A DNA stretch of 64,000 nucleotides, taken from the NCBI GenBank assembly GCA_000091205.1, contig AP006501.2; one strand, 5' to 3'. This document shows, piece after piece, positions 22,014 to 37,809 of the stretch (position 1 is the first letter of the stretch; each line of letters starts with the position of its first letter). Origin of the DNA: Cyanidioschyzon merolae (Eukaryota). The notes under the pieces are model-generated. The model worked only from the letters and a program-made list of their open reading frames with translations. It did not search any database and was not told the origin of the DNA. The position numbers were made by a program, and so were the translations under genes.

Positions 22014-23510
22014 CTAGTGCTCGCACTCTCGGATCAGCGCAAGCACATCGTAGATGATCCGAGCAGTCATTCCCCAGACAATTTTCCCGCTGCTGAGCTC
22101 TCGTGGTAGACAAAACATCGGTGCGGGGGCGGCCTCGGTCGAGAACTGTTCTAAGGGCGCTTGACGTTGCCCCGTCTCTTCTGGGGAGTCTCGCGCTGTT
22201 GTACCAACGATCTCCGAGGTTGTGTTTGCGCCTGCATGACTGGCTTCATTCACGAGATCCGTTCCCAGGGTCGTGTCCTCCCAAGTACAGTTACCTGATT
22301 CGGAGCGGCACGCCTCGAGAACACCGCGCGGCACCACAAGCAGGCTTTGAACCTCAGCCCGGTTCAACGCGAGTTGGCTTGGATTGACACGATCGTCCAA
22401 GTATCCGATGAATGACAAAACTCTAAAATTAGATGAGCGCAGAAGCGGCCGATACTCATGAAACTTTCCCAGTATGCGTATAAAACTAGGATCAAGTCCG
22501 ATCTCCTCTTGAGTCTCTCGCAAGGCGGTTTCCAGAAGAGAGCAATCCCCAGCGCGTACTTTCCCGCCAGGGCAGGAGATTTCGCCCCGGTGGATCCGAA
22601 CGAGCTTCGATCTCTCTGTGAGCACGAAAGCAACTTGGACGCAGGAGTCAGTCTCAGCCGCCTCGGGCCCGCGACAGAGTAAGACGAGCACAGCGGCATT
22701 CGGGGCCGCCACCGAGGGATCGTGATCCACGCGCACCGTGCGCAACGGCATTGTTCGCAGCCGCTGTTCTATGCGGTTCAAGAGATCACTGGTCCTCCTC
22801 GATCGAACATGAACGTGGCGTGCCCACGGCAAAGCTCGCTGAAGAAACGGCACCATGCGGATTTGGGTCCGGGTTCGTCCCAACGAGGTCGTCGACGACG
22901 CCAGCATTGGTTTCGACGGCACCTGTGATGGCGTCATTGTCACTGGTAACGACCTCGAATCTGTAGAATTCTGAGCAAGCGAGCGCCCCGGCATCGATGT
23001 GTTCGAGTTGAAGGCACTTGACCACCAGTTCCGCTGTGCCACCTTCCACAGTGTCTCGACCCAGTCACGCTCAAGAATACGGTGCTGAACAAAACGCACC
23101 AAGTTAGTAGCAAAGCCTCGCCGCGGCTTCCGCGACGTGGTGCATTGCAAGCCTGTAGTTGTGCGCCTCGGGCGCTGCCGTTTCGGTGGCTGGGCTGCCT
23201 GCGAAGCCGGTGGACGTGCTGGTTCAGGAACGAGCCGACCACAGAGTGAAGCGCGGGAGGCGCAACCAAGCGTCCTGTGCTCGACGGCGTCGCAAGCCTT
23301 TCTCAGCTGTACCCATGTGAAACTTGAAACCTTCAACAATCCTAAACCAGTCAGCGGAATGAAAAGCGTTGACAACACTCTAGCCCTGGGCGACTGCGCC
23401 GACACGCTGCCAACTCGCACGGGTGGCGCAGTTCCAACCTCGACTCCGGTCGTCGCCGGTGCCACCCCAGAGCAGAGCATCCCGCTCCCTTGACGTACCA
23501 GCCTACCCAT
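22014..23510 (-). CDS. Nudix hydrolase, CoA pyrophosphatase-like (NUDT7/8/PCD1 type). The N-terminal ~230 aa are low-complexity, so the true start may be internal.
   Basis: Nudix box 'GGKVRAGDCSLLETALRETQEEIGL' (GX5EX7REUXEEXGU). It follows 'AAVLVLLCRG...VAFVLTERS', as in CoA pyrophosphatases. Confidence 0.7.
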   Translation of the reverse strand: MGRLVRQGSGMLCSGVAPATTGVEVGTAPPVRVGSVSAQSPRARVLSTLFIPLTGLGLLKVSSFTWVQLRKACDAVEHRTLGCASRASLCGRLVPEPARPPASQAAQPPKRQRPRRTTTGLQCTTSRKPRRGFATNLVRFVQHRILERDWVETLWKVAQRNWWSSAFNSNTSMPGRSLAQNSTDSRSLPVTMTPSQVPSKPMLASSTTSLGRTRTQIRMVPFLQRALPWARHVHVRSRRTSDLLNRIEQRLRTMPLRTVRVDHDPSVAAPNAAVLVLLCRGPEAAETDSCVQVAFVLTERSKLVRIHRGEISCPGGKVRAGDCSLLETALRETQEEIGLDPSFIRILGKFHEYRPLLRSSNFRVLSFIGYLDDRVNPSQLALNRAEVQSLLVVPRGVLEACRSESGNCTWEDTTLGTDLVNEASHAGANTTSEIVGTTARDSPEETGQRQAPLEQFSTEAAPAPMFCLPRELSSGKIVWGMTARIIYDVLALIRECEH

Positions 23511-23619
23511 AAGATGCAGGGCCGGAAAAAGACTCTAGCGAGCTCCCAGCGGGCAACGAGTTTACACGTCGATAAAACGGCTGTGAACCGAGATTAGGTT
23601 TGGGATATCGCGGAGGTCG

Positions 23620-24690
23620 CTAGCCTGTGTAAGATTGTCCAATATCGTCGAGGACGCTATTGCTAGATTTGAACCTAAAGATATATATACATGCCAACTC
23701 ACAGACGCCTCCGAGTTTCTTACAACAGGCTCCTGCTGTCCGCTTCAGCTTTTCCGTGTACACCTCGAGCTGGAGAGGGTGTCCAGCAATGTTCGCTCGC
23801 ATCACATCCATGGGTCTCGTCTCCAGCACCGCATATCGTCTGATATTCATGGCGGCGTTCAAGTTGCGGTTCACCATTTCCGTTCGTTTATAGTTTCCGA
23901 TGGGACTCATCAATGCGAGGATTCCGAGAACTCGCGCCCCCAGTGCCTTTTGCTGCTCTGTATGGTTCCCGCGCTTTTCTATCGCCGGAGCGCACCGCTG
24001 CCTTATCTCCATCTCGGCCTTCTGAAGTGTACATCCTGGTTCATCCCTCGGATTTTCTATTTCCTCAAATGACCCCGATTGTCTAAGACCTTTGGTGATG
24101 ACCTAGCCGGAGGATGAGGGACTTGCGGAAGAGAGACGACATGTGTCCCGGTGTCACCGTGTGCTGAACGCTTCGGCGATTCGTCCAGTGCAGCGATTGT
24201 TACGTTTCACAATAGAAAACACTCTTCCGATGGAGTTCATCTACGGAGTGCACGGAGGAAGAGCATGCAGCTCTACCCCGATGGCATCGGAAAAAGACCG
24301 AACGCAACGGGTGTGGTCAAATGCCACGTTGTCGAACAGAGCGACGTTGCGAGACGTCAGCGAAAACTCTCTAATGGCTGGACGAAATTGCTGGTGCTGT
24401 TATATGAGCCTTCTGTACGAGCGAAACTAAGGCCGCCAAGTATATCCACTTCAGCTGGAAGAGAGGATAATGTCGTCGTTATCTTCGAGTTCGATCCTGC
24501 ATGGAACGGGCTCTATCTCCGCGACTACCCATATACGCTCCGAACGTCTTGTACGAAAAAAGTTTCATCGATCGAAACAAACCGCTCGATGCCCTCTGCT
24601 TCGTACTGATCGCGAGGTTCCAGGAACCCTGTCGTTGCGATTTCTTGTGGAAGATAGCGGAGTGTGAACTAGAACTTTTTTCCACTGTGT
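23620..24690 (-). mobile_element. TnpB/Fanzor-like gene relic, copy B. RuvC-III Asp is replaced by Asn, and the upstream part is frameshifted.
   Basis: ORF 23620-24012 (-): 'EIRQRCAPAIEKRGNHTEQQKALGARVLGILALMSPIGNYKRTEMVNRNLNAAMNIRRYAVLETRP...GHPLQLEVYTEKLKRTAG'. It aligns residue by residue with copy A ('EMEKCQRSFEDIAKYGPMTGEQMETRANVRGLLALVSTVNGNEKRMEYVNRDFNAALNIRKCAV'). Minus-strand frames at 24479-24685 ('SMKLFSYKTFGAYMGSRG') match copy A 'ERLVVTYGAGRWMTQKG' and copy C 'SMRLSWDETVGAYMDIRG'. Confidence 0.5.
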
Positions 24691-25427
24691 TCTAACGTTT
24701 TTAGGACCACACGAGCAAGCTGTTGCGAAAAATCGACGCGTGTGGCGACTAGCAGCGTCGCTTTTTGCTTTTCGTAAGGTTATCAACGGGTCCGTTGCTA
24801 CCAGTTACCGCAAACACGCTTTGAGCACATCGGTTTTTGGCGCGATGTGCATCTACTTTCTTTCAGTGTCTCTCAACCATCTGACTATTGTGGTATGTCA
24901 TACCTGAAGGAGAAGTGCTGTCCTCATTGCACTGTTCATTAAAGAATATATATATCCTACAGGCAAATCTAATACGATGCATACTGTAAAATGCATTGCG
25001 ATTCCGACCTCCTGCACTGCATCGCACCGGCGGTGGAACGAAACCAAGCTGGATGACGCGAAGCAGGCAGGCAAGGCAAATCATAGATGACTGAATTGTC
25101 TCTTCATTCGCGAATCTCTAACAAACAGCTCGTTCCTCGAAACTCCAGTTCTACACTCTCGCTTTCCAGCACCGTCTGTAGCGATGAACTCTGTCGATAT
25201 GGATCGCTGAGCGTGCTCTGTTTGACTGTCTCGCACGCTGCGGCAGTGGACACGCTCTTAGCTTGACACCTGGTGCAGCAGATGCGACTGCTGTACCTGT
25301 GAAACGGAGCCCGGTCGCCACCGCGCACTAGTCGCCGGGCTGGTTTTCCTGAGATCTGCGTTTCTATTTCTTCCCAGCGACGCTATTTGGAGCGAAATAA
25401 CGCAAACTTTTATTATTAGAGGAGTAA

Positions 25428-26183
25428 TTGAACGATTTCGGAGCTGTTCAACGGGGGAACGGTGAGGAGTTAGCGTCGCGGTTGCACACGCCGGTCAGCT
25501 GCACTTTTTGCACGCGCAGCGTAAACCCCGTGTCGCCCGGTTCCCAGAGACGGTTTTGGACCGAACTTATGGCCGCAGACTCCACTGAATCCAGCGACTT
25601 TGCTGTCATACCCTTTGGATCCGAGTACTTGCATTTTTTTGCGGTGAAGACGCTGATCGACGGCTTGCTGAGCGAGCCTTACTCCACGTTCACCTACCGG
25701 TACTTTCTACGCCAATGGAGCGAACTGTGTTTCCTAGCGGTTCGGAAACTTCCGCATGCTGCATCGTGTACACCGCTCCGATCTGAGGATTTGTTCGGTT
25801 GCATCATTGGCAAGGCAGAGGTGCACAGAGACTCGCTCCGCGGATATATTGCAATGATTGCCGTCGACATGACGCATCGTCGACGCGGTCTAGGCACATT
25901 ACTCGTACAGCGAACGCTGCAAGCCATGCAAGAGCGAGGATGTGATGAGGTAGTCCTCGAAACTGAAGTAACGAATCACTCCGCGCTACGAATGTATGAG
26001 AAGCTAGGCTTCTTGCGCGACAAGCGTCTCGAACGGTACTACTTGAACGGATCGGATGCGTTTCGACTGCGCCGCCGCCTGGTGCCGCTGCCGATGCCCA
26101 ACATCGACTCACCAGCACCCCAGCTGCCATTGAATCAGAAAACGTCGGAACCCGAGAGAATCACCGAAAGCTACTCTGATTGA
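25428..26183 (+). CDS. NAA30: N-alpha-acetyltransferase 30 (NatC catalytic subunit, MAK3-like), GNAT fold
   Basis: 'GYIAMIAVDMTHRRRGLGTLLVQRTLQAMQERGCDEVVLETEVTNHSALRMYEKLGFLRDKRLERYYLNGSDAFRL' shows GNAT motifs A and B with the MAK3/NAA30-type Q/RxxGxG/A. Confidence 0.8.
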   Translation: MNDFGAVQRGNGEELASRLHTPVSCTFCTRSVNPVSPGSQRRFWTELMAADSTESSDFAVIPFGSEYLHFFAVKTLIDGLLSEPYSTFTYRYFLRQWSELCFLAVRKLPHAASCTPLRSEDLFGCIIGKAEVHRDSLRGYIAMIAVDMTHRRRGLGTLLVQRTLQAMQERGCDEVVLETEVTNHSALRMYEKLGFLRDKRLERYYLNGSDAFRLRRRLVPLPMPNIDSPAPQLPLNQKTSEPERITESYSD

Positions 26184-26505
26184 AAAGAGCGTTCGAATAC
26201 GGGCTTTTCACAAGTGTTCCCGTGATTTGCATCCAGGTCCTAGTTGCTGTCGTCGAATATAATCTATACATCATCTCTGGGGAAGCCTGGGCTCCACCAG
26301 AAACGCGTTTGAAACAGTGTTTAGATGCGTATGTTCTTCGCGAGCTGAACGTCGCAGTACGACGCCTTCCATCGACTAACGTAAGTTGATGATGTGCCGC
26401 AGGCTACATCGCGAGGAACTCGCGCTTCTCGGATTGATTGCGCGATTTTATCCATTGTCGAGTAGGGAAGATACGCGCGGAAATCTTCCCTCTAGCCTCG
26501 AGTGG

Positions 26506-26810
26506 GTCATAGCGTTATCACCAACGCGATGCAGCCCACAAAGTTCTATTTGATGACATTTCACGTTGCGGAGTATATCTGCAGATGGCTTGTACGTGTG
26601 CGCATGTGCACATGTACATGCATCTACATTGGCATTACCGATTGTCATAGCGTTATTACCAACGCGATGCAACCTAGAAAGTTCTATTTGATGACATTTC
26701 ACGTTGCGGTGGATACCTGTGGATAGCTCATGCATGCATGCATGCATCATTGCATGTGTCCATGCGTGCACGCGCACGCATCTCCTTGGCGGCGGCGGCG
26801 GCGGCAATGA
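26506..26810. repeat. Composite repeat: an ~85-bp core present twice (26506-26590 and 26644-26728, period 138 bp), followed by (CATG)n and (GGC)6 microsatellites
   Basis: Direct read: 'gtcatagcgttatcaccaacgcgatgcagcccacaaagttctatttgatgacatttcacgttgcgg...' is repeated. Then 'catgcatgcatgcatgcat' and 'ggcggcggcggcggcggc'. Confidence 0.85.
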
Positions 26811-26910
26811 AGGTCATGGAGACACCTTGTATAACGATTGCGTTGCCGGGGTCCATGAGATGTTCTGCATGCCGCGTCAACTTTGACCTTTAGTTTTCGC
26901 TACTATCTTT

Positions 26911-28992
26911 GTGCGAGCTCGAGTGGCAAACTGTCGCGTTCGTTGCTTTTCAGCCTTGCGATTCCGTTCTTCAGGAATTCATTCATCCAGAGCCATTGCC
27001 TCGAACAGGCAACCTATGAAAGAAGCAAAGCTCATGGCGGGTGAAGTACTCGAGCGCTGGCCGGAGCCGACCTCTCTTCATGCACTCGTTGAGCGGCTGT
27101 TCGTCGAGCTCTTTAGATATGGCTCTTTATCAGCAATCGCGTTTCATTTCGACTTCAGTCTTGGAGTTCTGGAGCTGCACTGGCGCACAATCCCCGATAC
27201 GAACGCGGCACCGTCGCTTGACGTGAAGGATTGGCTCACGAACTGCTGCACGAGAACGGTTTTGGCTGCTTCTAGCCTGCGGATAGAGGGTGTATTCGCT
27301 CACCGTCCGATTATACGTCGCCAGCTCGAAGCGCAAGCCGGTCGGCTAGCCTCAGAATTGCTTTCGACCGTGTTGCGTCCGTGGGCTGCCCTATACGTAA
27401 ACGTCTCGTGGGAGGTAGCTCTCATGGGAAGCGGCACTCTCGCCTTTGCGCGGCACTTCAGATGGGATAATCCGAATGACGAGGCAGCATCCGAGCAGCC
27501 ATGGCTCCATCGAATGCGCCAATTGCTGAACGAAACAGCGGCTGTTGTGCGGTTTTCCACACACGTCATCGCGGGGAACTTGCCCGCGAGCCCGATGCCA
27601 TCAAGATCGGCATCGGGTGAATGGCATCTTGCTCTGGTCCACGGCTTCCGCCAATGCTGTTGGATCTTTGGCTGGAACGGGCGACCGTTGAAGATCGACA
27701 TCGAATGTCTGCAGCGGACGCTCGGCGTTCCGCATCGCGAGCAGCTTGCTTGCGGCATTGCACAGTGGCGTGACGGAAACGCTACATGGGGAGCATTCCA
27801 GGCAGATGGCTTCGATCATGCCCGAACAGCGGACTGCTGGTTGTGCAGTGGCCCAGCCGAATCATGCGAAGTGTTCCAAGCACTTCAGTTAAAGCTACGA
27901 GAACTCTTGGGGGTAAGCACCTCCACGTTGCAAACGGATTCGGTCTGGGGTAGCGTGCGCGAGCAAGCGCTGGCCAGTATCACTGCGTCTCGGCGGTCGT
28001 GCCAGCGACACGATGTCGTGCCGTCAACCGCGTCACTCCGCGATCCCGTACTCGCAGATGGCATTACGTCGACGACCCGCGCGCTGGCATTCTCCGAGAC
28101 CCTCGGCCGACCGCGAACGCCGCCAAGCCGATGCCGCACGCGTCCTTGCACGCGAGATACGTCGAACTTTCCGCCGTCGCTGAGCGTCTTCACGACGCGC
28201 GCCCTTGAGCGCCTACAGCCGGGCTGGGAGAGCGACCTCTACGGGGCGCAGGGACACTGCCCTGTGCCGATCCTCCCCGACCTTGACAATGCGCGCGTTG
28301 ATCCCACAGCTGCCAGAACGGCGGTCCAACTCCACGCCCGTGAACTTGAAGATGCAGTTGTCGTCGGTCAATTTGATGCCAAATTCATTGTGTTCCGAGT
28401 GCGCTCTGAAATTTTTCTATTGGATCAACACGCAGCGGATGAGCGGGCTCGTTTCGAGCAACTCACGCAGATGTATCAAGAGTCACTGGACCCCCGGAAG
28501 TACCCAACTGCTCTGAATCGCAGCGTTTCTCTTCGGGTCCCGTTGCTTGTCGATCTCGGTTCTCGTTGCCTATCTGCAACGACATGTGCATTCCTGCGGC
28601 ATTTTGGATGGTCCTGGGATGAAGCCTCATCCGAAAAGCCAATAGATACGCATATAGCGAGCACAGCTATCGCTGGTACTGAGCACCGATCGACTCTTCG
28701 AGTTCGCAGTGTGCCAAGCGTTCTCGGTCAGCAGCCGCTCCTCCAAGCTTCAGATCTGCTCGAGTGCATTGACTTGATGTTGGAAACGGATCACGCGGTT
28801 AGCATGGTACCTGCTGCACAGCGAGTCCTCGAAACGCTTGCTTGTCGTCACGCCATCATGTTCGGTGACCGTTTGGATCTCGCAGCCTGCCAACAGCTTT
28901 TGAAGCGTTTATCGAAATGCAGGTTGCCTTTCCAGTGCGCCCATGGGCGACCTTCGGTAGCTGCTCTGAGCTGCCCGAGGCGACCCCGGTGA
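26911..28992 (+). CDS. MutL-homolog C-terminal endonuclease domain protein (PMS1/PMS2/MLH3 type). No GHKL ATPase domain is recognisable in the 693-aa ORF.
   Basis: Endonuclease motifs are intact: 'DQHAADERARFEQL' (DQHAx2Ex4E), 'ACRHAIMFGDRL' (ACR/SCK motif), 'CAHGRPS' (CPHGRP), preceded by 'VVVGQFDAKFIVF'. The N-terminal 450 aa lack 'ELVENSLDA', 'DNGxGI' and 'GFRGEAL'. Confidence 0.75.
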   Translation: MRARVANCRVRCFSALRFRSSGIHSSRAIASNRQPMKEAKLMAGEVLERWPEPTSLHALVERLFVELFRYGSLSAIAFHFDFSLGVLELHWRTIPDTNAAPSLDVKDWLTNCCTRTVLAASSLRIEGVFAHRPIIRRQLEAQAGRLASELLSTVLRPWAALYVNVSWEVALMGSGTLAFARHFRWDNPNDEAASEQPWLHRMRQLLNETAAVVRFSTHVIAGNLPASPMPSRSASGEWHLALVHGFRQCCWIFGWNGRPLKIDIECLQRTLGVPHREQLACGIAQWRDGNATWGAFQADGFDHARTADCWLCSGPAESCEVFQALQLKLRELLGVSTSTLQTDSVWGSVREQALASITASRRSCQRHDVVPSTASLRDPVLADGITSTTRALAFSETLGRPRTPPSRCRTRPCTRDTSNFPPSLSVFTTRALERLQPGWESDLYGAQGHCPVPILPDLDNARVDPTAARTAVQLHARELEDAVVVGQFDAKFIVFRVRSEIFLLDQHAADERARFEQLTQMYQESLDPRKYPTALNRSVSLRVPLLVDLGSRCLSATTCAFLRHFGWSWDEASSEKPIDTHIASTAIAGTEHRSTLRVRSVPSVLGQQPLLQASDLLECIDLMLETDHAVSMVPAAQRVLETLACRHAIMFGDRLDLAACQQLLKRLSKCRLPFQCAHGRPSVAALSCPRRPR

Positions 28993-29456
28993 TCGCCAAT
29001 TCAGTGCTGCATCACCGAGAAGCTTGCGACAGAGCCTGCTTTTCTGTGCTTAAAGCGCTAGTTTCGTCACTCACGTATATCGACAATGATACTTGTGGAC
29101 TTGTTTCGGCTTTTCCATTGCGCGTGTTTGCAGGTTCGGAACAAACGCTAGCCATGCCGATGTTGCAGAGTTGGTTCGAAATCCACTAAACATGCCGCTT
29201 CACCATACGGAAGCACCAGCAAACCCATGAATGCATGCACGACCAGCGTGGACTTGGTCAACGGTTTGCAGGGCGTTCCCGTCGACAGCCCTGATGCGCG
29301 TACTTGAAACCGAGCTGGGTTAGCGTTCGGGCTTCACGTATATGCAAAGACCAGCATACCGCGTATACTCCGATGCTCGCTCCGTACACTATCGAGTACA
29401 AAGCAAATATCCAATGTACATTTTGTACATGATTGGAATCGCCGCTTATCAACATA

Positions 29457-31277
29457 CTATCTCCGTCCGTGCAAAAGCGCCAAAACAACGCGGCGCATTT
29501 TTTCATACGCTACCTCAATATCATCATTCACAATACGTAAATCGAAACCTGTAATTTTCTCAGCGATATCCATTTCCTGGCGGGCGGCCTCCAGGCGCCG
29601 ATCGAGTTCCGAGGGACTCTCGGTCTCGCGCCGCCGGAGTCGCTGCTCGAGCTCCATCAGCGAGGGCGGTGCAATCCAGATATAGAACGCATCCAATTCC
29701 TGTCGATCCATCATGGTTTGTGCACCCTGCAAATCCAGACTCAGAATGCAAACTCGAGGCGATGGCGATTGCGTAACAGCTCGCACAGCACCAAACGTCG
29801 TCCCGTAGTAGTTGCCGTAAACGCAGGCATATTCGATGAATTTGCCTGCGGCGACATCCGCCAAAAAATTTTCCTTCGACACGAAATGGTAAGACACACC
29901 GTCAACTTCTCCTGGACGCGGCGCTCGCGTTGTTGTCGATACCGAATAGCCCAGATGGTTCGGAAACTCTGCTAGAAGCCGCCCTATGAGCGTCGACTTG
30001 CCCACCCCAGAAGGGCCAGTTACCACAATGGCGGTTACAGCAGGCGGATTTCGCGCCAAATCTGGCAAGTTGCGGGCGCTGCGTGCAGCGCGTCGCGACG
30101 CCACGTCATGGTTGGAGGCGTATTCTGCGTGCTGTGATGCTGCATTGCGCGCTGCGCTCGCTGGTGCGATGCGTGCTGCCTCTGCATAGTCACGTATGGA
30201 AACATACCATAGGGGTATCTTGTACGAGAGAAACCCCAAGATGCATGAAAAGACCTGACTCGATGTCAGCGTGCCTCGCTGCGATAGCACGAGGCTCAGG
30301 ATTGCCACCATGGGCGCCGCATAGCGCGCAGCAGAGAAGACGGACACCGCGCGTGGCTGCTCGGTGGTACTCGCTGGAGCTGCCGCAGCGCCAGCCAGAT
30401 CAGTGGATCCAGCGATGGGCTGCAGGCGATCAACGGATCGCTGTAATAAGCGAAGATAGAGGACGCCAGCCGATGAGCCAGCCGCAAAAGCGAGAGCGTC
30501 GGCGATTCCCGCGCGCAGGAAACAAACACAGACGCCAATGCCGGACGTAACGAGTGTGCCCTGCAGGAGCCACCTCTTCAATTTCTGGTACTCTTGCAGG
30601 CCTTGGTCGCGCTCGGCGATCATCTCTGGGCTCAGCGGTGCGCTCCTAGCGGGTGGCGGAAGCGCCTCTAACGTCCACACTCGGTTCTGTGGGTCATACG
30701 CTACTCTGTCGCATACGACGATTTCGGTGCTCGTGCGCCATACTGTTTTTCGATTCGAACTCTCGATGAACTTGTTGGTATCGCCGACGCGTTCTAATGG
30801 CTTTATATCTGTAATAACCTGGACAGAGTTCGCACGTGGTGTGACGCCCTCCACAACGCCTATGAGACGCTCCTCTCGCCATCTGCCTGGATAGAGCACA
30901 ATATCTCCAACCTGTGGATCGTTACGTATCGCGTTCGCAGCGTTGTCTTGCTGCGCTGTCAACATCCGACTGGTGCTGTGTGGGGCTGCTTCCTGAGCGC
31001 CTCGCTGAAGCAGGCGAACTTGAGGGGCTCGCAGCTGGGCTCTCCGGCTTCTACAACCTAGCGCTGGACGCCGACTGGTGCTTTCACTGCGTCGTTTTTC
31101 GGAAGCGCGTCGCCTCAGCGAGTGGTCAGTCACCCGGCACGCTGTCGAGCGCAGCAAGGGCACGAAACTGAAAGTTGAGCGCGGTGGTCCACGGTGTGCT
31201 GGGTACCGCCTTCGTTCAACGCGACGCCCAAGTCCCCAAGGCGGTGACTCGTATAGTCGCCGTACGTTCGGTGACAT
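29457..31277 (-). CDS. Guanylate kinase (C-terminal ~200 aa) fused to an N-terminal extension of about 400 aa that contains predicted transmembrane segments
   Basis: GK motifs 'IVVTGPSGVGKSTLIGRLL', 'YSVSTTTRAPRPGEVDGVSYHFVSKENF', 'GKFIEYACVYGNYYGTT', 'ILSLDLQGAQTM'. The extension holds hydrophobic stretches 'LVTSGIGVCVCFLRAGIADALAFAAG' and 'PMVAILSLVLSQRG...VFSCILGFLSYKIPLWYV'. Confidence 0.85.
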   Translation of the reverse strand: MSPNVRRLYESPPWGLGRRVERRRYPAHRGPPRSTFSFVPLLRSTACRVTDHSLRRRASEKRRSESTSRRPALGCRSRRAQLRAPQVRLLQRGAQEAAPHSTSRMLTAQQDNAANAIRNDPQVGDIVLYPGRWREERLIGVVEGVTPRANSVQVITDIKPLERVGDTNKFIESSNRKTVWRTSTEIVVCDRVAYDPQNRVWTLEALPPPARSAPLSPEMIAERDQGLQEYQKLKRWLLQGTLVTSGIGVCVCFLRAGIADALAFAAGSSAGVLYLRLLQRSVDRLQPIAGSTDLAGAAAAPASTTEQPRAVSVFSAARYAAPMVAILSLVLSQRGTLTSSQVFSCILGFLSYKIPLWYVSIRDYAEAARIAPASAARNAASQHAEYASNHDVASRRAARSARNLPDLARNPPAVTAIVVTGPSGVGKSTLIGRLLAEFPNHLGYSVSTTTRAPRPGEVDGVSYHFVSKENFLADVAAGKFIEYACVYGNYYGTTFGAVRAVTQSPSPRVCILSLDLQGAQTMMDRQELDAFYIWIAPPSLMELEQRLRRRETESPSELDRRLEAARQEMDIAEKITGFDLRIVNDDIEVAYEKMRRVVLALLHGRR

Positions 31278-31769
31278 GAAGGTAAAGAAAGACTCAACGA
31301 GAAGGCGAACGAGTCAACACACTGCGAGCGGCAGCCAAGTACACTCGTCCCTGTCCGGAAATCCGCATTGCGCAGTGGAGGCAATGCATTCTGCGTCGCT
31401 GGCGCCTGTTATGGATCGTCCTCGGCGCTTGCGCTGTCCTTCATCCATCCAAGATTATAGTCTTTCAGCTCAATTGTGTTTCAATCCCGCTGCGGTTCGT
31501 AGCAGGAGATCGATATTATAATGCAATATACCGGCTAAATCGCAGACGAATTGCATGCAGGTTATATTCTTTTCTGAGTAGTTCAAGGAGATTTGGATTG
31601 CTCCTCCTGGCCAGTCATATCATAGGACTCTGATGGTTCAGGAACACTGAAAGAAACAAGAATATAGGCTCTGCATCAAAAACATGAATTCTCAAGGCGT
31701 GCTTGCGGTAAATGGTAGAAAACGGTCCGTCGATCAGCCTACGGAAAGCGAATAACGATAACAGTTGCT

Positions 31770-32905
31770 GACATGGGCGTTTCTGTTTCTCTGCCCTTGT
31801 TGGTGCGCTCCTGAAAACGCTGGGATCCAATCGCACATAAAGTCCTACCACACGAACAGCCATCATCCACCGAGTTCGCAACTACAGAGTTCCTGGAACG
31901 CAGCGATCGGTATGAATCACAGGAACGTCGGATTGTTTTCACAGTCGATGAGACTTTCTTGGGACGAAACGGTCGGAGCGTATATGGATATTCGAGGTGA
32001 AGGGAGCCCGCTGTATCCAGAATCGAACTCGAAGAGAACGAGGATATTACCGTCTGTTCTAGATGCAGAGGATTCCAGTCGCGGCCTCAGTTTCGCTCGT
32101 GGAGGAGGCTCATAAGACAGCATCCACTTTGTCGAATCATCGAAGACTTTCACCCTGACTCCTGGCGACTTCCTTCTATTGGACAACGTGGCATTTGACT
32201 ATTCGCTTTGCGTTCGGGCTCTTGCCTATTCTATCGGGTTTAGAGCTGCTTCTCATTCCTCGATACGCTCCGTGGCTGATTCAGATGAAAGTATCGTTTT
32301 CTATTGTGAAACCTAATGAGCGCTGCACCAAGCGGATTCCCAAAGCGTTCCGCACCCGGCGACACAAAGGCGCGTGTAGTCTTTCTTCCGTCGGTCCGTC
32401 TCCCGCCAGAAAGGTCCTGAAATAAGGGCATGAATAAGTGCGTCCATTTTCAAAAAAATCCAAGCGAAAGGCATGGACATGGAAGGCGAGGATCCTGGAG
32501 GGCAGTCATTGGTGGATGCCGGAAAAGAACAAAAAGACTCATCAGCTCTCTGACCATCGAGCAGAGAAGAGCATATGACAACGACGACGAAGAAGAAGAG
32601 GAGAGATGTGCAAGAAATGAGGTTTGCCCGTCGAGGCGACAATGAGACTGTAGTGACTCAGCGGGCATGAGTTCAAGGAATCCTCGCATTGATGAGTTCC
32701 ACCTCCGGCAATACACGCATGCCGTTCAGGAACCGAAACTTCAACGCCGCCATCAATACCAGACGATTTGTCGTACAAAAGACGAGAACCGAGAAGCTGA
32801 CACAAGCGAGCTTTTCGGGCAGCCTCTCAGGGTCGAGATGTACGGCGAGAAAGTGAAGTCGATAGCAGGCGGCCTTTCGCACAGGGCTGGGATGCCTTTG
32901 TGAGT
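31770..32905 (+). pseudogene. TnpB/Fanzor-like gene relic, copy C. It carries multiple frameshifts, and RuvC-III reads D->N.
   Basis: Frames pieced from ORFs 31765-32115, 32195-32425, 32430-32645 and 32667-32903: 'SMRLSWDETVGAYMDIRGEGSPLYPESNSKRTRI', 'VQGILALMSSTSGNTRMPFRNRNFNAAINTRRFVV', 'GQPLRVEMYGEKVKSIAGG'. These are colinear with copies A and B. Confidence 0.5.
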
Positions 32906-34980
32906 AGGTGTAAATATGTACGCTGTGGTGGTTGAGCATTTTTGTTTTCAACATCACGTGTAGAAGGCAGGCCTTGACAACGACTTCAAATTGATTTTTC
33001 CGATTTGAGAGTTTTGCTTTCCTGTCCTTCCTGGTCCTCTTCTCGGAGGAAGCTTTCTCTTCTCTGTCTGGTGGATTCGTTTTTTCTCCGTTACCTGGCA
33101 GGGTGGCATTGATGTGGTCGATAGTCAGTACGTCCATCGAACCGGGAAGAAGAGGCTTGCACGAACAGCCGGATCGGCACCATTCGCAGCTTTCTATACA
33201 TTGAACGTTCGTGATTGATGGAATGCGATGTTGCCCGACAACAGGACAGAAGAATTTGGGGGAGCGGAATCTTTGAAGAGTGCTTCAACCAACGATATAT
33301 TGATGTACGATCCCGTCCTTTGGGCGGTTTGTCAGCGACCACTCGATCGAATCACCACCAGGGCGAATGCTTACCTTATGCTCATTTCTTTTTTCTTTTC
33401 GAACACTGGTACATGGAGACTCCTCGAGCACCCATTTGCAGGAGTACCATTTCTCCCGAATCGGCTCTGATCGAGTGAGACAAACACATGCACTTTCTGT
33501 TGGCAGCGATCACGATTCAGGACAAAAACGACAGCAGGTGGTGTAGAATGTGCGACGATCACCCGCAGAAGCGTACTTGTACCTGTGTCCGCTCGTGTCT
33601 CTTCATAGCCAGTCGTTTGAGCGGTACAGAAACTTCACATACTGTGGCTACTTCCATAGTATTTCTCAAAAAACGGATGAAGTAGGAAGGGCTGATAAAG
33701 AGAGATTCATTGGGATGGAGTCTGGGAAGTGCTGCTATGGGTGCAGCACTTTCTGTATATGGGCGGGGTGAAGGGTGCCAGAGCCACTTGCTGAGCGTCG
33801 GATAACTGACTTGGACATGCAAGACCGTTTCACCGTATGCGACGAGCGACAGCGCCATGACATTCCTCGACTTTTAGCCAATCTGCAACATTCATTCGCT
33901 TTGCTCAATCTTCGCATGAAACACGGGCAAAACAGAAAAGGCTCGCTGGTGCAGGTATCCCAGAATTCACTGCTCTGAGTATAATGCCCTTTGACGGGTA
34001 GCAGAGCTTCTTTAGCACCGATCTTTCTGCCAGAATGAAGCGTGCAGTGAGAAAAAACTAGGGCCCACATCTCGTGCTCCTACCTGCGTATTTTTCACGC
34101 ACACAAGAACGAACAGCCTCTTAGCTCATTCTCAGTTTTCTATGCACCCAGCGCACGGACGCTTCTCGTTCTCGTATCTGAGAATGTTCGACGAATCATG
34201 ACGGGATGCGAAGTGTTTTACTAATTTATCAGTGTTTCGGCGACTCGGCTGCTGGCCAATAAGCTTCTGTCAACGTCCTAGATTGGTTGCTATTGAAGCC
34301 ATCCGAGGATAATTCCAAGCGGTGCAATGCAAGAGGGGGCACTCGAGCCGAATTCTCGCCTCAAAGAAAAAATTCTCGATTAGCTCGAATAGCCACGATT
34401 ATGCTTGAGTCTTGAGGCACGAGCTCTCATGCTGACCCATATCCTCCGTAAACTCAGGTGGAATGTATGCAGCGATTACACCAACCCACTCAAGAGCGAT
34501 CGGCAAGCTAGGGAATCGCCCCGAGTGCCGGGTGCACTCCTTTCGTGCGCTCAGCGACGCCGGATGACAAGCACTGCATAAGTCTTCCACGGAGCAAACG
34601 ATAAATAAAAGCTATCCACCGGATGTTCTCATCATCCTGTTGATTTTTGCGTGCGAACAGCAGCGTTCGACATGAGCCAGCACTCAACTGTCGAATACTG
34701 ATCCAGCACGACAGGTCAAGCATCGCGTCAAAACACCAGCCTACGAGAGCAAACGAGTTTTTCGCCACAGCGAACGGCATCCGTGGAGTCTTTGGCGTCT
34801 CATACCAGTGTCGACATCCTATCCACGTTTCCGATACGAATCATGGAAAGAGCACTCACCGGACTCGTGATGCATCGGCCGCGCGAATCGCTCCCCATGG
34901 AAAAATTGGTAATTGTTCCCGGGCTTGACGCTCCGCTGCTCTCCAATTGGAGCATTCTCCATAGCTAACGCATCGAACAC

Positions 34981-36165
34981 TTATGCTTCATCCTCATCTA
35001 CACCAGATTCGAGTTCCAGCTCCTCGTCTGCCAGAGACTGATGAACAGGTCTGGGGGCTTTGGCAGCGCTTCGTGCGCGCTGTTTTCGTCGCGTTCGCTT
35101 CCGCCCGCCGCGTCCACGTCGTTTTTCCCACGGGCGGGGAACCGCAACCGGCCGCAAGTAATCATACAACAGAGGTGTCGTGTTCGATGCCTCTGTTGTA
35201 TGCCACGCGGCGCAACGTGCTTCTTTGCGCCACAGGTCGAGGAGCTCCGCGTGTGCCCGAGCACCCATTTCACCCCTGCGATCCGTTGTTGTGCTCTCAA
35301 AAAGATCGACCCGAGCCATGAGTGCGATGCTGTTCGCTATTTTTCGGGCAATGCACCGAATGCGCCGTACGTTTGTTTCCGATCCGACCGCACCTGCGTT
35401 TTCTAAACCTGCAAGAATCTCACGGAGAAGGCTGCATTGAAAAATGGCCCCCCGTAGACACCGGGGGCCATAGAAAACGTACGTATCCCGCGCTCCGATG
35501 AGGCGCAACTGATCGGAAGGAAGTTTGGCCAAGGCCTCGAGGCCGCCGCACTCTGCGAGCACTCGCACCGCAAAGTTCTTCCCCGTCAGTGCGCACAAGT
35601 TGGGCGCCACAAACTCCACTTGGTCAAGTAATCGCATCATGAGCTCTTTCTCTTCCATCAAAAAACGCTTACTTCTCTGAATCAGTCTTGCAACTTGCTC
35701 CCAATCAGTCAGTGGCGGACCCAGTCTCCGGAGCAGCAGTGCAAGCCCCATGCTGACCTCTGGCGGCCACGAGCGCTCGCCAAGCACCGCTATGTCGATT
35801 GGTGGCGAACGGTTACCCAGAGCCTCAACGATTTCGAGTCCAAAAACTGGATCGCTCGTCAGTGTTCCCAAGCCCGGTAAGCGTTGTTCATAGGCGGCAA
35901 GCACTTGTCGACAGATCTCGCAAAGCCGGGAGTGCGTCTCCCGCACCGCTGCAGCGTTCCTCTCGAACGTTCTTTTCGTTTCCGAAAGCGTTTCCGCAGA
36001 AAACTTTACATCCTTAACAACTTTTTGGGAATCTTGGCTGGTTAAAAGCGTCCTGGCAGAAACGCCAGTGCTCATCAAACCCGAAAAGAGGCGACTGCAA
36101 CTGCGGTATTTGTCGTAGGAACGGCAACGCGTTCCGACGCGTGCGTTGCACTGCGGCTCCAGCAC
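34981..36165 (-). CDS. Nop-domain protein, PRP31-like (U4/U6 snRNP) and divergent
   Basis: 'APNLCALTGKNFAVRVLAECGGLEALAKLPSDQLRLIGARD...IRCIARKIANSIALMARVD' matches the Nop-domain consensus (LAKxPaStvqiLGAEK...IARxLAaKxALAaRvD). No NOP5 N-terminal domain is present. A basic C-terminal tail resembles PRP31_C. Confidence 0.5.
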   Translation of the reverse strand: MLEPQCNARVGTRCRSYDKYRSCSRLFSGLMSTGVSARTLLTSQDSQKVVKDVKFSAETLSETKRTFERNAAAVRETHSRLCEICRQVLAAYEQRLPGLGTLTSDPVFGLEIVEALGNRSPPIDIAVLGERSWPPEVSMGLALLLRRLGPPLTDWEQVARLIQRSKRFLMEEKELMMRLLDQVEFVAPNLCALTGKNFAVRVLAECGGLEALAKLPSDQLRLIGARDTYVFYGPRCLRGAIFQCSLLREILAGLENAGAVGSETNVRRIRCIARKIANSIALMARVDLFESTTTDRRGEMGARAHAELLDLWRKEARCAAWHTTEASNTTPLLYDYLRPVAVPRPWEKRRGRGGRKRTRRKQRARSAAKAPRPVHQSLADEELELESGVDEDEA

Positions 36166-36249
36166 AAACCTTCTTGTTGACGCGTATTACGTAGCACCAC
36201 AGCGTTCTGACCTCGCCTCACGAGATTTTTACAGACTTGTTCGGTCGCA

Positions 36250-37809
36250 GTGGTAAGCCAAGACAGAGAAAACGGCACAGGCTTCGGGTGGACCGGGCAG
36301 AAGCCGATGGTTTCCGCAGGCCCCCCTCAGCGAGCCTCAACGGGTGGCGGCGGCGGCTCCGGCGGTGGCAGCAGCAGCAGCAGCGAGGACTCAATGAAAC
36401 CTGCTGAGCTACCGGACCTTGCAGTTTGGCAGCCGATTTCACTGGTGCCTGCTCGCTTACGAAGTTCACGCCACAGCGTCTGGGACGCGAACGCGCTCGA
36501 AGACACGGTGTCGACGCTCGATGACCCCTGGTCGTTGCTCTCTGCAGCTTCGAAGCTTTTGGTGGAAAAAAGTCAGGGCAAGCGCCCGGAATCTGAGCAA
36601 GGCGCTCTCTACTCGCAGCGAGACGCAGACATAAGCGCTTTGGCTCCTGTGAAAGGTCTCCCACTTGAGTGGCTTCCGCAGCAGAGCCTTCGGAGCTTTG
36701 GCCTGCGAAACCTCGGAAACACCTGTTATGCCAATGCCGTTATCCAGGCGCTGCTGCATACGCCACCGTTGGTGCTGAAAGCGCTCTCCGATGGATGCGC
36801 CAGCGCCACTCCGCATACAGGCTTTTTCGATGCTATGGCAGCCTTCGTGCGTCTCTGCCGACAGCTGCTCGTTGTACGTCCCTCCGGAACGAATGCAGTT
36901 GCCCCGACGGAAATCATCCGCAACTTACCCGCAATCTGTCGAAGGTATCGAGTCGGACGGCAAGAAGATGCCCATGAGTTTCTCCGATTTCTCTTGGAGA
37001 GCATAGCGAGAAGCTGTAGTCGAAGGGGTGAGCGTCGTCTCCCTTCACAACAGGTCTCCAGTGATGAGCTGGTTGCTTCCGATTGTAATCATGGGACAGG
37101 TTGGATTACCCGCATTTTCGGAGGCCTACTCCGCAGTCGTGTCATATGTCGAACATGTCAGCACAAATCGTATCGAACTGAGCGGTTTTTGGACCTCAGT
37201 CTAGATTTTCGGCAGTCGGCCTCGATCTCCAAGTGCCTCGAACATTTCGCAGCGACGGAGTTGCTCGCAGGCCGAAATCGCTATGACTGTGCGGCATGCC
37301 ACGGTTACAGCGATGCGGAGAAGCAAATCCGCATTCGACAGGCTCCTGTTGTGCTCACGCTGCATCTGAAGCGCTTCCACGCGCTTCGAAAACTCTCTGG
37401 TGTTGTGCGCTTCTCCGAGTGGCTCGATCTGCGACCCTATATGGCTGAGGAGTTTGTGGCAGGCCCTGTGATGTATCGACTGTTTGCAGTGATCGTACAC
37501 GAGGGCCATTCGCTGTCCAGTGGCCACTACTATGCATTTGTTCGGAGTGCCAGTGGTGCCTGGTTGCGATGTGACGATGAGCACCTGTCACGAGTCGGTA
37601 TAGGCTCGGTTTTCGCGCAACAGGCGTACTTGCTGTTTTACTTACGCGTGGATGCTGTACCGGGCGAAAGCGCTATTGAGACTTCGGAGGTATCGACCGC
37701 AACATCTGAACCTGATACCAAAATCTCAGGTGGGGTTTCGACGGCCCCTGATTTCCAGGCGAGGCAAAGCAAAAAACCGCGATCAGAAGTGAAACGATTC
37801 GAGTCGTGA
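36250..37809 (+). CDS. Ubiquitin carboxyl-terminal hydrolase (USP/UBP, peptidase C19)
   Basis: Cys box 'GLRNLGNTCYANAVIQALLHTPPL', 'YDCAACHGYSDAEKQIRIRQAPVVLTLHLKRF', His box 'GHYYAFVRSASGAWLRCDDEHLSRV'. The N-terminus is Gly/Ser-rich, encoded by GGC/AGC repeats. Confidence 0.85.
   Translation: MVSQDRENGTGFGWTGQKPMVSAGPPQRASTGGGGGSGGGSSSSSEDSMKPAELPDLAVWQPISLVPARLRSSRHSVWDANALEDTVSTLDDPWSLLSAASKLLVEKSQGKRPESEQGALYSQRDADISALAPVKGLPLEWLPQQSLRSFGLRNLGNTCYANAVIQALLHTPPLVLKALSDGCASATPHTGFFDAMAAFVRLCRQLLVVRPSGTNAVAPTEIIRNLPAICRRYRVGRQEDAHEFLRFLLESIARSCSRRGERRLPSQQVSSDELVASDCNHGTGWITRIFGGLLRSRVICRTCQHKSYRTERFLDLSLDFRQSASISKCLEHFAATELLAGRNRYDCAACHGYSDAEKQIRIRQAPVVLTLHLKRFHALRKLSGVVRFSEWLDLRPYMAEEFVAGPVMYRLFAVIVHEGHSLSSGHYYAFVRSASGAWLRCDDEHLSRVGIGSVFAQQAYLLFYLRVDAVPGESAIETSEVSTATSEPDTKISGGVSTAPDFQARQSKKPRSEVKRFES

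Follow-up and report, generated by a model that had tools for sequence, protein, structure and literature searches.

A 606-codon gene on the minus strand of a 64,000-nucleotide stretch of Cyanidioschyzon merolae DNA (contig AP006501.2 of assembly GCA_000091205.1; this whole stretch is called the window below) almost certainly encodes a real fused protein, in which a soluble beta-barrel and a four-helix membrane module precede a guanylate kinase (GK) that is predicted to be active. On sequence comparison, the assignment of the membrane module to the CGL160_C/Atp1 superfamily is solid. CGL160 itself is a thylakoid assembly factor of the chloroplast CF1-CFo ATP synthase and promotes assembly of the c-ring (PMC4383579, PMC9806626).

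The gene lies where a first-pass annotation, made from the letters alone, had placed it: a single uninterrupted open reading frame (ORF) on the minus strand (29457..31277) begins with ATG, encodes 606 amino acids and has its stop codon at 29457-29459. An exact-sequence match identifies it as C. merolae 10D BAM83025.1 (XP_005539061.1; UniProt M1V7E7), located in a 1.28-Mb record and annotated as "similar to guanylate kinase", nothing more. Because the nuclear DNA of C. merolae is red-algal and nearly without introns, a single-exon reading of the 606-amino acid ORF is appropriate. The features of the gene are as follows (TM, transmembrane).

29457..31277, minus strand: complete single-exon ORF, 606 amino acids plus stop (ORF listing; exact-sequence match; frame, ATG and length the same in close-strain contigs L003-L008)
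30924..31277, minus strand: leader rich in Arg, Ser, Ala and Pro, residues 1-118, presumed plastid transit peptide (composition; orthologue alignment)
30633..30923, minus strand: soluble Tudor/SH3-like beta-barrel, residues 119-215, including 'GDIVLYPGRW...' (AlphaFold2 model; orthologue identity)
30192..30632, minus strand: four-helix membrane module of the CGL160_C / ATP-synt_I (Atp1/UncI) superfamily, residues 216-362 (PF24763; hhalign; motifs)
30510..30566, minus strand: TM helix 1, residues 238-256 (hydropathy; AlphaFold2 helix 217-256)
30441..30500, minus strand: TM helix 2, residues 260-279 (hydropathy; AlphaFold2)
30282..30341, minus strand: TM helix 3, residues 313-332 (hydropathy; AlphaFold2)
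30195..30254, minus strand: TM helix 4, residues 342-361 (hydropathy; AlphaFold2)
30042..30191, minus strand: helix extension, then disordered linker rich in Ala, Arg and Ser, residues 363-412 (AlphaFold2 confidence; orthologue identity)
29460..30041, minus strand: eukaryote-type GK domain with intact catalytic set, residues 413-606
29994..30017, minus strand: P-loop GPSGVGKS, residues 421-428 (active-site residue check)

Domain layout of the fused protein

The 606-codon frame and its ATG are identical, with zero indels, in six independent close-strain contigs (L003-L008), and a syntenic orthologue from a related cyanidialean alga (P0016, metagenome contig L001) has 607 amino acids from its own ATG and the same five-part layout. 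Substitutions among the close strains are mostly silent in the GK domain (10 synonymous, 2 non-synonymous), whereas the leader has 1 synonymous and 3 non-synonymous changes, too few for dN/dS. One change seen in some natural strains, L82M (codon 82, window 31032-31034), creates an internal ATG, and the 525-amino acid entries found in databases are explained by a prokaryotic gene caller having been offered this start. Another internal methionine, Met105 of C. merolae (codon 105, window 30963-30965), lies 16 residues ahead of the barrel and is missing from the orthologue; initiation there could in principle yield a leaderless isoform. For a product consisting of the GK only, no suitable ATG is available in the C. 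merolae sequence from codon 219 to the start of the GK domain.

Domain searches of the region upstream of the kinase, together with structure prediction, identified the membrane module and the barrel, neither of which had been recognized in the first-pass annotation. PF24763 (CGL160_C) matches residues 217-354 with 37.0 bits (gathering score 34.2), and orthologues reach 52 bits. In profile comparisons, the red-lineage module matched that of other CGL160_C proteins with an hhalign probability of 99.9% (E = 1.7e-35) and the module of a green family characterized by a DUF7755 domain with 99.7% (E = 2.7e-27). Among 61 green and other relatives of the module, 60 match CGL160_C and 31 match bacterial ATP-synt_I (best E = 7.6e-9); the C. 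merolae protein itself gave no match to PF03899 at E ≤ 1. The consensus motifs of the family, EYxxLKxxLL, LYLxLLxRSVDxL and LGFLxYK, read EYQKLKRWLL, LYLRLLQRSVDRL and LGFLSYK, respectively, in the C. merolae protein, and the module as a whole is 53% identical to that of the L001 orthologue.

The number of membrane helices, first given as at least three or four, was settled at four rather than three by hydropathy and by an AlphaFold2 model (residues 105-606, from a 42-sequence family alignment; mean predicted local distance difference test score, pLDDT, of 86). An amphipathic pre-helix carrying the EYxxLKxxLL motif runs on into TM helix 1, and the loop ahead of TM helix 3 (residues 289-308) is predicted to be disordered. 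Since the number of helices is even, both termini of the module lie on one side of the membrane. Lysines and arginines are distributed unequally, with 10 across the N-flank, loop 2-3 and the C-flank versus 1 across loops 1-2 and 3-4, and on this predicted topology, which agrees with the stromal N-terminus of CGL160 (PMC9806626), the barrel and the GK should both face the stroma. The helix extension that follows the module leads into a linker for which pLDDT falls below 50 (residues 374-402) and which is 35% identical to that of the orthologue.

The C-terminal domain is, as had been noted, a canonical GK (EC 2.7.4.8): PF00625 matches residues 416-598 (E = 1.1e-48, 165.8 bits for a cutoff of 25.2) and the TIGR03263 equivalog model gives 190.3 bits, above its cutoff of 160.45. 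Its active site was checked in an alignment with 1gky (yeast) and 1lvg (mouse), the P-loop being scored as GxxGxGK[ST] together with the LID arginines and the equivalents of yeast S34, R38, R41, Y50, E69, Y78 and D100, residues which we take to have the roles that they have in the yeast structure. All 21 of the 21 P-loop, GMP-site and LID positions are intact, the domain is modelled with the GK fold at a pLDDT of ~95-98, and the C. merolae GK is, as far as such residues can predict, catalytically competent. It is also the best-conserved part of the protein (81% identity to the orthologue, compared to 53% for the TM module). The domain resembles mouse and yeast enzymes (E ~1e-47) more than bacterial GKs (E ~1e-30) and its best database relatives are fungal GKs with ~50% identity. 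As the GK is of the eukaryotic cytosolic type, the fusion has paired a host-type kinase with a module of cyanobacterial ancestry. The earlier suggestion of a fused upstream gene is right in the evolutionary sense that a separate CGL160_C/Atp1-UncI module was joined to a eukaryote-type GK, and wrong if it is understood as an error of annotation or read-through. The top PDB sequence match of the domain is 7n6g_6M, the Chlamydomonas central-pair protein FAP42, which is not a specific relative and ranks first because the scores of several tandem GK-like domains add up. No second C. merolae GK was seen among the listed GK-domain homologues, in a word-limited search that missed even the cluster of the protein itself.

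The soluble segment quoted as 'GDIVLYPGRW...' had been described as conserved-looking, and it proved both conserved (46% identity to the L001 orthologue, compared to 24% for the leader) and folded in the model, where seven strands (residues 126-203, mostly with pLDDT above 90) form a beta-barrel of a generic Tudor/SH3-like type. Two candidate relationships of this barrel were rejected. Its hhalign probability is 1.9% against DUF7755, and PF24938 (DUF7755) gave no match in the C. merolae protein at E ≤ 1. Against CGL160N, the N-terminal domain of CGL160, the probability is 0.1-3.7% after purification of the comparison set, and 0.1% against the N-region of the CGL160-like protein P0154, the one verified CGL160-proper-like sequence in this comparison. 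An initial CGL160N match of 98.7% was an artefact of contamination of the set by P0042, P0153 and P0161, the last of which also has a red-type barrel.

The basic head of the protein corresponds to residues 1-118, with 26 arginines and a net charge of +20. Its identity to the L001 leader is at noise level (24% over residues 1-104 and 7% over residues 105-119), while its length is kept (118 amino acids in C. merolae and 117 in L001, where it is likewise open and ATG-initiated). Since the L001 leader contains no further ATG, the conserved barrel can be made only if this leader is translated. All relatives carry leaders of 40-120 amino acids, which were inspected for targeting signals. A hydrophobic N-terminal signal peptide is present in 15 members from algae with complex plastids; at its predicted cleavage site, 12 of them have Phe or Tyr and 1 more has Trp (for instance ...CIYS|F, ...CALG|F, ...SLA|F, ...RCNA|F, ...PSAP|F and ...GGAA|Y). 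Targeting to red-derived complex plastids uses a bipartite signal of this kind, in which an "ASAFAP" motif with its Phe comes after the signal peptide (PMC4329603, PMC6995639). Most primary red-algal members have a Phe within the first ~10 residues, as expected for red-algal and glaucophyte transit peptides (PMC2222254). It seems, then, that an organelle-targeting signal and a membrane domain do precede a real GK, as the first-pass annotation had suggested; the C. merolae leader would be a targeting signal, and the protein is probably, though short of certainly, directed to the plastid. Most red-lineage members (P0019, P0021, P0025-P0027, P0032, P0022 and others) also have a conserved (E/T)xDxRGF(V/L) motif directly ahead of the barrel, which may mark the mature N-terminus or be a binding motif; it is missing in C. 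merolae (AIRNDPQVGD) and in the close orthologue.

Spread of the fusion and fate of the kinase

An exhaustive hidden Markov model search with the non-GK part of the protein yielded 159 matches among 1.84 billion representative proteins. Domain typing of 165 proteins gave 41 with barrel, TM module and GK (13 of these belong to C. merolae's own cluster), 18 with barrel and TM module, and 97 with the TM module alone. The complete layout is not peculiar to C. merolae: besides the syntenic orthologue it is found in Porphyridium purpureum (KAA8495622.1, 559 amino acids), in Compsopogon caeruleus (528 amino acids) and in ~25 further clusters, and it recurs in dozens of distant relatives. The Compsopogon sequence derives from an MMETSP transcript, so that in this alga a single mRNA carries the whole fusion. 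Ochrophyte members come from Pelagophyceae sp. CCMP2097, Aureoumbra lagunensis and Chrysoparadoxa australica. Judging from these sequences, the fusion is common to red algae and algae with red-derived plastids. The cryptophyte Teleaulax amphioxeia has a form (P0022 / P0168, 437-489 amino acids) made of barrel and membrane module without GK; its listed N-terminus is acidic, unlike a signal peptide, and the gene model may be 5'-incomplete.

The kinase site has decayed in many of the members from complex plastids. In the pelagophyte type of C-terminal domain the P-loop is kept and the GMP site is lost (S447W, T493L, loss of E482); members with such degenerate GMP sites are P0033, P0036, P0043 and P0046, from pelagophytes and Chrysoparadoxa. 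In a group of ~600-amino acid proteins (P0047, P0048, P0058, P0062, P0065 and P0085; P0048 is encoded by L002:3001-4773) the GMP site is lost, the P-loop reads GxxAxGR with a Lys to Arg change, and Pfam detects no GK, yet the domain is GK-derived (hhalign to red GK 99.5%, E = 2.1e-22). By their residues, these degenerate domains look like pseudo-kinases or kinases of altered specificity. Retention of a decayed kinase fold beside a conserved barrel and membrane module points to a role of the GK fold beyond catalysis. Because the kinase site decays and the cryptophyte form is without GK, the family's conserved core consists of the barrel with the membrane module and does not include the enzyme.

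Known relatives, proposed role and alternatives

The membrane domain of CGL160 has four predicted helices and descends from cyanobacterial Atp1/UncI, while its N-terminal domain has been shown to face the stroma and to recruit CF1 (PMC4383579, PMC9806626). CGL160 (Arabidopsis At2g31040) and the C. merolae protein have in common the four-helix module matched by PF24763 with its three motifs, a soluble domain N-terminal to it (stromal in CGL160) and an organelle-targeting leader (presumed in C. merolae). They differ in that the N-domain of CGL160 is CGL160N, which binds CF1-beta, whereas the C. merolae protein has a Tudor/SH3-like barrel and, at its C-terminus, a complete GK. Synechocystis Atp1 can replace the membrane domain of CGL160 (PMC9806626). 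Atp1 (UncI, 'ATP synthase protein I', PF03899) shares the ancestral four-helix module with the C. merolae protein. It is encoded in the atp operon and, at roughly 120 amino acids, stands alone, whereas the C. merolae protein adds two soluble domains. The second green family, with DUF7755 and CGL160_C (P0044, P0073, P0061, P0039, P0056 and ~20 more; for example Stephania yunnanensis KAK9169347.1), also has a soluble N-domain before a homologous module, but this N-domain is unrelated to the red barrel and no GK follows; a full-text search found no paper on DUF7755.

On the enzyme side, the likely functional counterpart for plastid GDP/GTP supply is the plant GKpm (At3g06200; VIRESCENT-2 in rice), likewise nucleus-encoded and organelle-targeted. 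GKpm is a small soluble enzyme, annotated simply as a guanylate kinase and without any CGL160-type domain, whereas the C. merolae GK is cytosolic-eukaryote-like and joined to such a domain. Guanosine tetraphosphate (ppGpp) inhibits GKpm (PMC10107265). In MAGUK scaffolds an SH3 domain is also combined with a GK-like domain, but MAGUK GK domains do not keep all of the catalytic residues. The C. merolae GK does, four TM helices part it from the barrel, and no PDZ domain was matched in a profile search of the protein. In MAGUKs the pattern is the opposite of that in the ochrophyte forms, where the GMP site is lost and the P-loop often kept. To our knowledge, the C. merolae protein would be the first membrane-embedded nucleoside-monophosphate kinase of such a kind.

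We propose that the ~118-amino acid Arg-rich leader would direct import of the nucleus-encoded protein into the plastid, where the CGL160_C/Atp1(UncI)-type module would enter a membrane, most likely the thylakoid, with the N-terminal barrel and the C-terminal GK both on its stromal side. At the membrane surface, next to the ATP source, the GK would convert GMP and ATP to GDP and ADP, and the module would associate with and chaperone the c-ring/b subunits of CFo, as its relatives do. Barrel and GK would then occupy the place that the green-specific CF1 recruiter CGL160N has in plants. For C. merolae we infer the plastid or thylakoid localisation, the topology and the ATP-synthase role. Taken as a whole, the model of a plastid membrane protein with a competent GK and a CGL160/Atp1-like module acting at the ATP synthase seems to us evenly balanced between right and wrong; that the module has an ATP-synthase-related function, which is argued by analogy, we put slightly below the halfway mark. 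A bolder version is improbable: the red-lineage counterpart of CGL160 would use the GK fold and the Tudor-like barrel as a stromal arm, the GK either docking or recruiting CF1 or coupling ATP-synthase assembly or activity to the state of guanine nucleotides and ppGpp in the plastid. If true, the nucleotide metabolism of the stringent response and the photosynthetic ATP synthase would be physically and directly linked.

Several points count against the proposed model. The CGL160_C score of the C. merolae protein is barely over threshold (37.0 versus 34.2 bits). Orthology of its module to CGL160 proper is not solid, because CGL160 proper and the green DUF7755 + CGL160_C family are about equally distant from the red module. 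The barrel being unrelated to CGL160N, CF1 recruitment is not transferable by homology. The leader of C. merolae has no early Phe, the first being residue 36, and because it is Arg-rich without early Phe it is less diagnostic of destination than those of the relatives; Arg-rich leaders can also target mitochondria. Localisation, start codon and protein interactions are all deduced from sequence for C. merolae. Lastly, the four helices may do no more than anchor the protein.

This last point is the main rival explanation, less probable in our judgement than the proposed model and still to be reckoned with: the plastid GK of red algae would be tethered to a membrane by helices without any ATP-synthase function, for example for GDP/GTP to be made near nucleoids or ribosomes. 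The marginal CGL160_C score fits this explanation, as does the GK being both complete in its active site and better conserved than the TM module (81% versus 53%). In plants, moreover, plastid GK is needed for chloroplast biogenesis and ppGpp control (PMC10107265). However, the signature motifs of the module are kept across red algae, ochrophytes and green plants, which would be unexpected for a mere anchor, the kinase site decays in many complex-plastid members whose barrel and membrane module are retained, and in the cryptophyte form there is no GK to be anchored. Should the module prove to be an anchor only, the gene would be a modest curiosity of plastid nucleotide metabolism.

The other rivals are minor. 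It is quite improbable that the protein is a precursor cut in the linker (residues ~374-402) after import, to release a soluble stromal GK from a barrel/CGL160-like membrane protein. The linker is long, of low complexity, predicted to be disordered and of low identity (35%), as such a precursor would have it, but no conserved cleavage motif was seen in it, and the degenerate GK-like domain stays attached in ochrophytes, which suggests that the domains work jointly. We give equally little weight to a different destination, be it mitochondria, the plastid envelope instead of thylakoids, or two organelles at once; the Arg-rich leader without early Phe would permit this, and plant GKpm (V2) is reportedly dual-targeted. 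Against it stand the plastid-specific bipartite signals of the complex-plastid orthologues. The characterized CGL160_C relatives, in addition, are all thylakoid proteins of cyanobacterial ancestry (PMC4383579, PMC9806626). Finally, the idea that the ~400 N-terminal codons are a 5' region left open by chance or a gene join made by sequencing error, the product being a GK of ~200 amino acids, is extremely improbable and effectively refuted already: identity to the orthologue is 46-53% in the barrel and TM parts and at noise level in the leader, the Pfam domain CGL160_C is in frame, the N-terminal part folds confidently in the AlphaFold2 model, six strain contigs keep the frame without indels, the same fusion recurs in the syntenic orthologue and in transcriptome-derived proteins of other, distant red-lineage algae, and an ATG for a GK-only product is absent from codon 219 to the start of the GK domain.

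The gene bears on how CGL160 has been classified. In GreenCut2, proteins that green algae and plants share but that have no orthologue in C. merolae or diatoms form the class 'CGL', "Conserved only in the Green Lineage" (PMC12636532), and CGL160 or its N-domain has been called green-lineage-specific (PMC4383579, PMC9806626). The two CGL160 papers make no mention of red algae or guanylate kinase (PMC4383579, PMC9806626), and a full-text literature search found no description of a GK-CGL160 fusion; the single paper in which both are named concerns rice YL1 (PMC5009372). As the Pfam domains PF00625 and CGL160_C have already been assigned to these proteins automatically, the architecture is visible in databases and appears undiscussed. 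The "green lineage only" label is called into question by an Atp1/CGL160-type module hidden under a GK annotation in C. merolae, the red reference of GreenCut2. A red-lineage family (red algae, pelagophytes, Chrysoparadoxa and a cryptophyte) shares this module, with differing stromal domains, and the gene is a candidate for the missing CFo assembly factor of red-type plastids. The presence of a GK predicted to be active in red algae and degenerate at its GMP site in ochrophytes is a natural experiment that bears on the role of the kinase fold. Gene targeting by homologous recombination is routine in C. merolae, which makes these hypotheses directly testable.

Genomic neighbourhood

Synteny between the window (22014-37809) and L001 extends over six genes: NUDIX, GNAT acetyltransferase, a MutL_C protein, the GK-fusion gene, Nop and UCH. 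The MutL_C gene (26911-28992, plus strand) and the GK-fusion gene run towards each other, with 465 bp between their stop codons. Within the 693-amino acid ORF of the MutL_C gene, residues 485-525 match the MutL C-terminal dimerisation model, but over just its first 41 positions, and an N-terminal ATPase domain was not among the matches at E ≤ 1e-4; the product could be a divergent MLH/PMS-type protein, and translation probably begins elsewhere than at the listed GTG.

On the other side, a 3.7-kb intergenic stretch (31278-34980) separates the ATG of the GK-fusion gene from the Nop-domain gene (34981-36165, minus strand). It contains no ORF of at least 180 amino acids, and tRNA and Rfam scans of the window, this stretch included, detected no tRNA or Rfam family. 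GC content falls to ~0.50 there, and the corresponding interval in L001 is ~1.1 kb.

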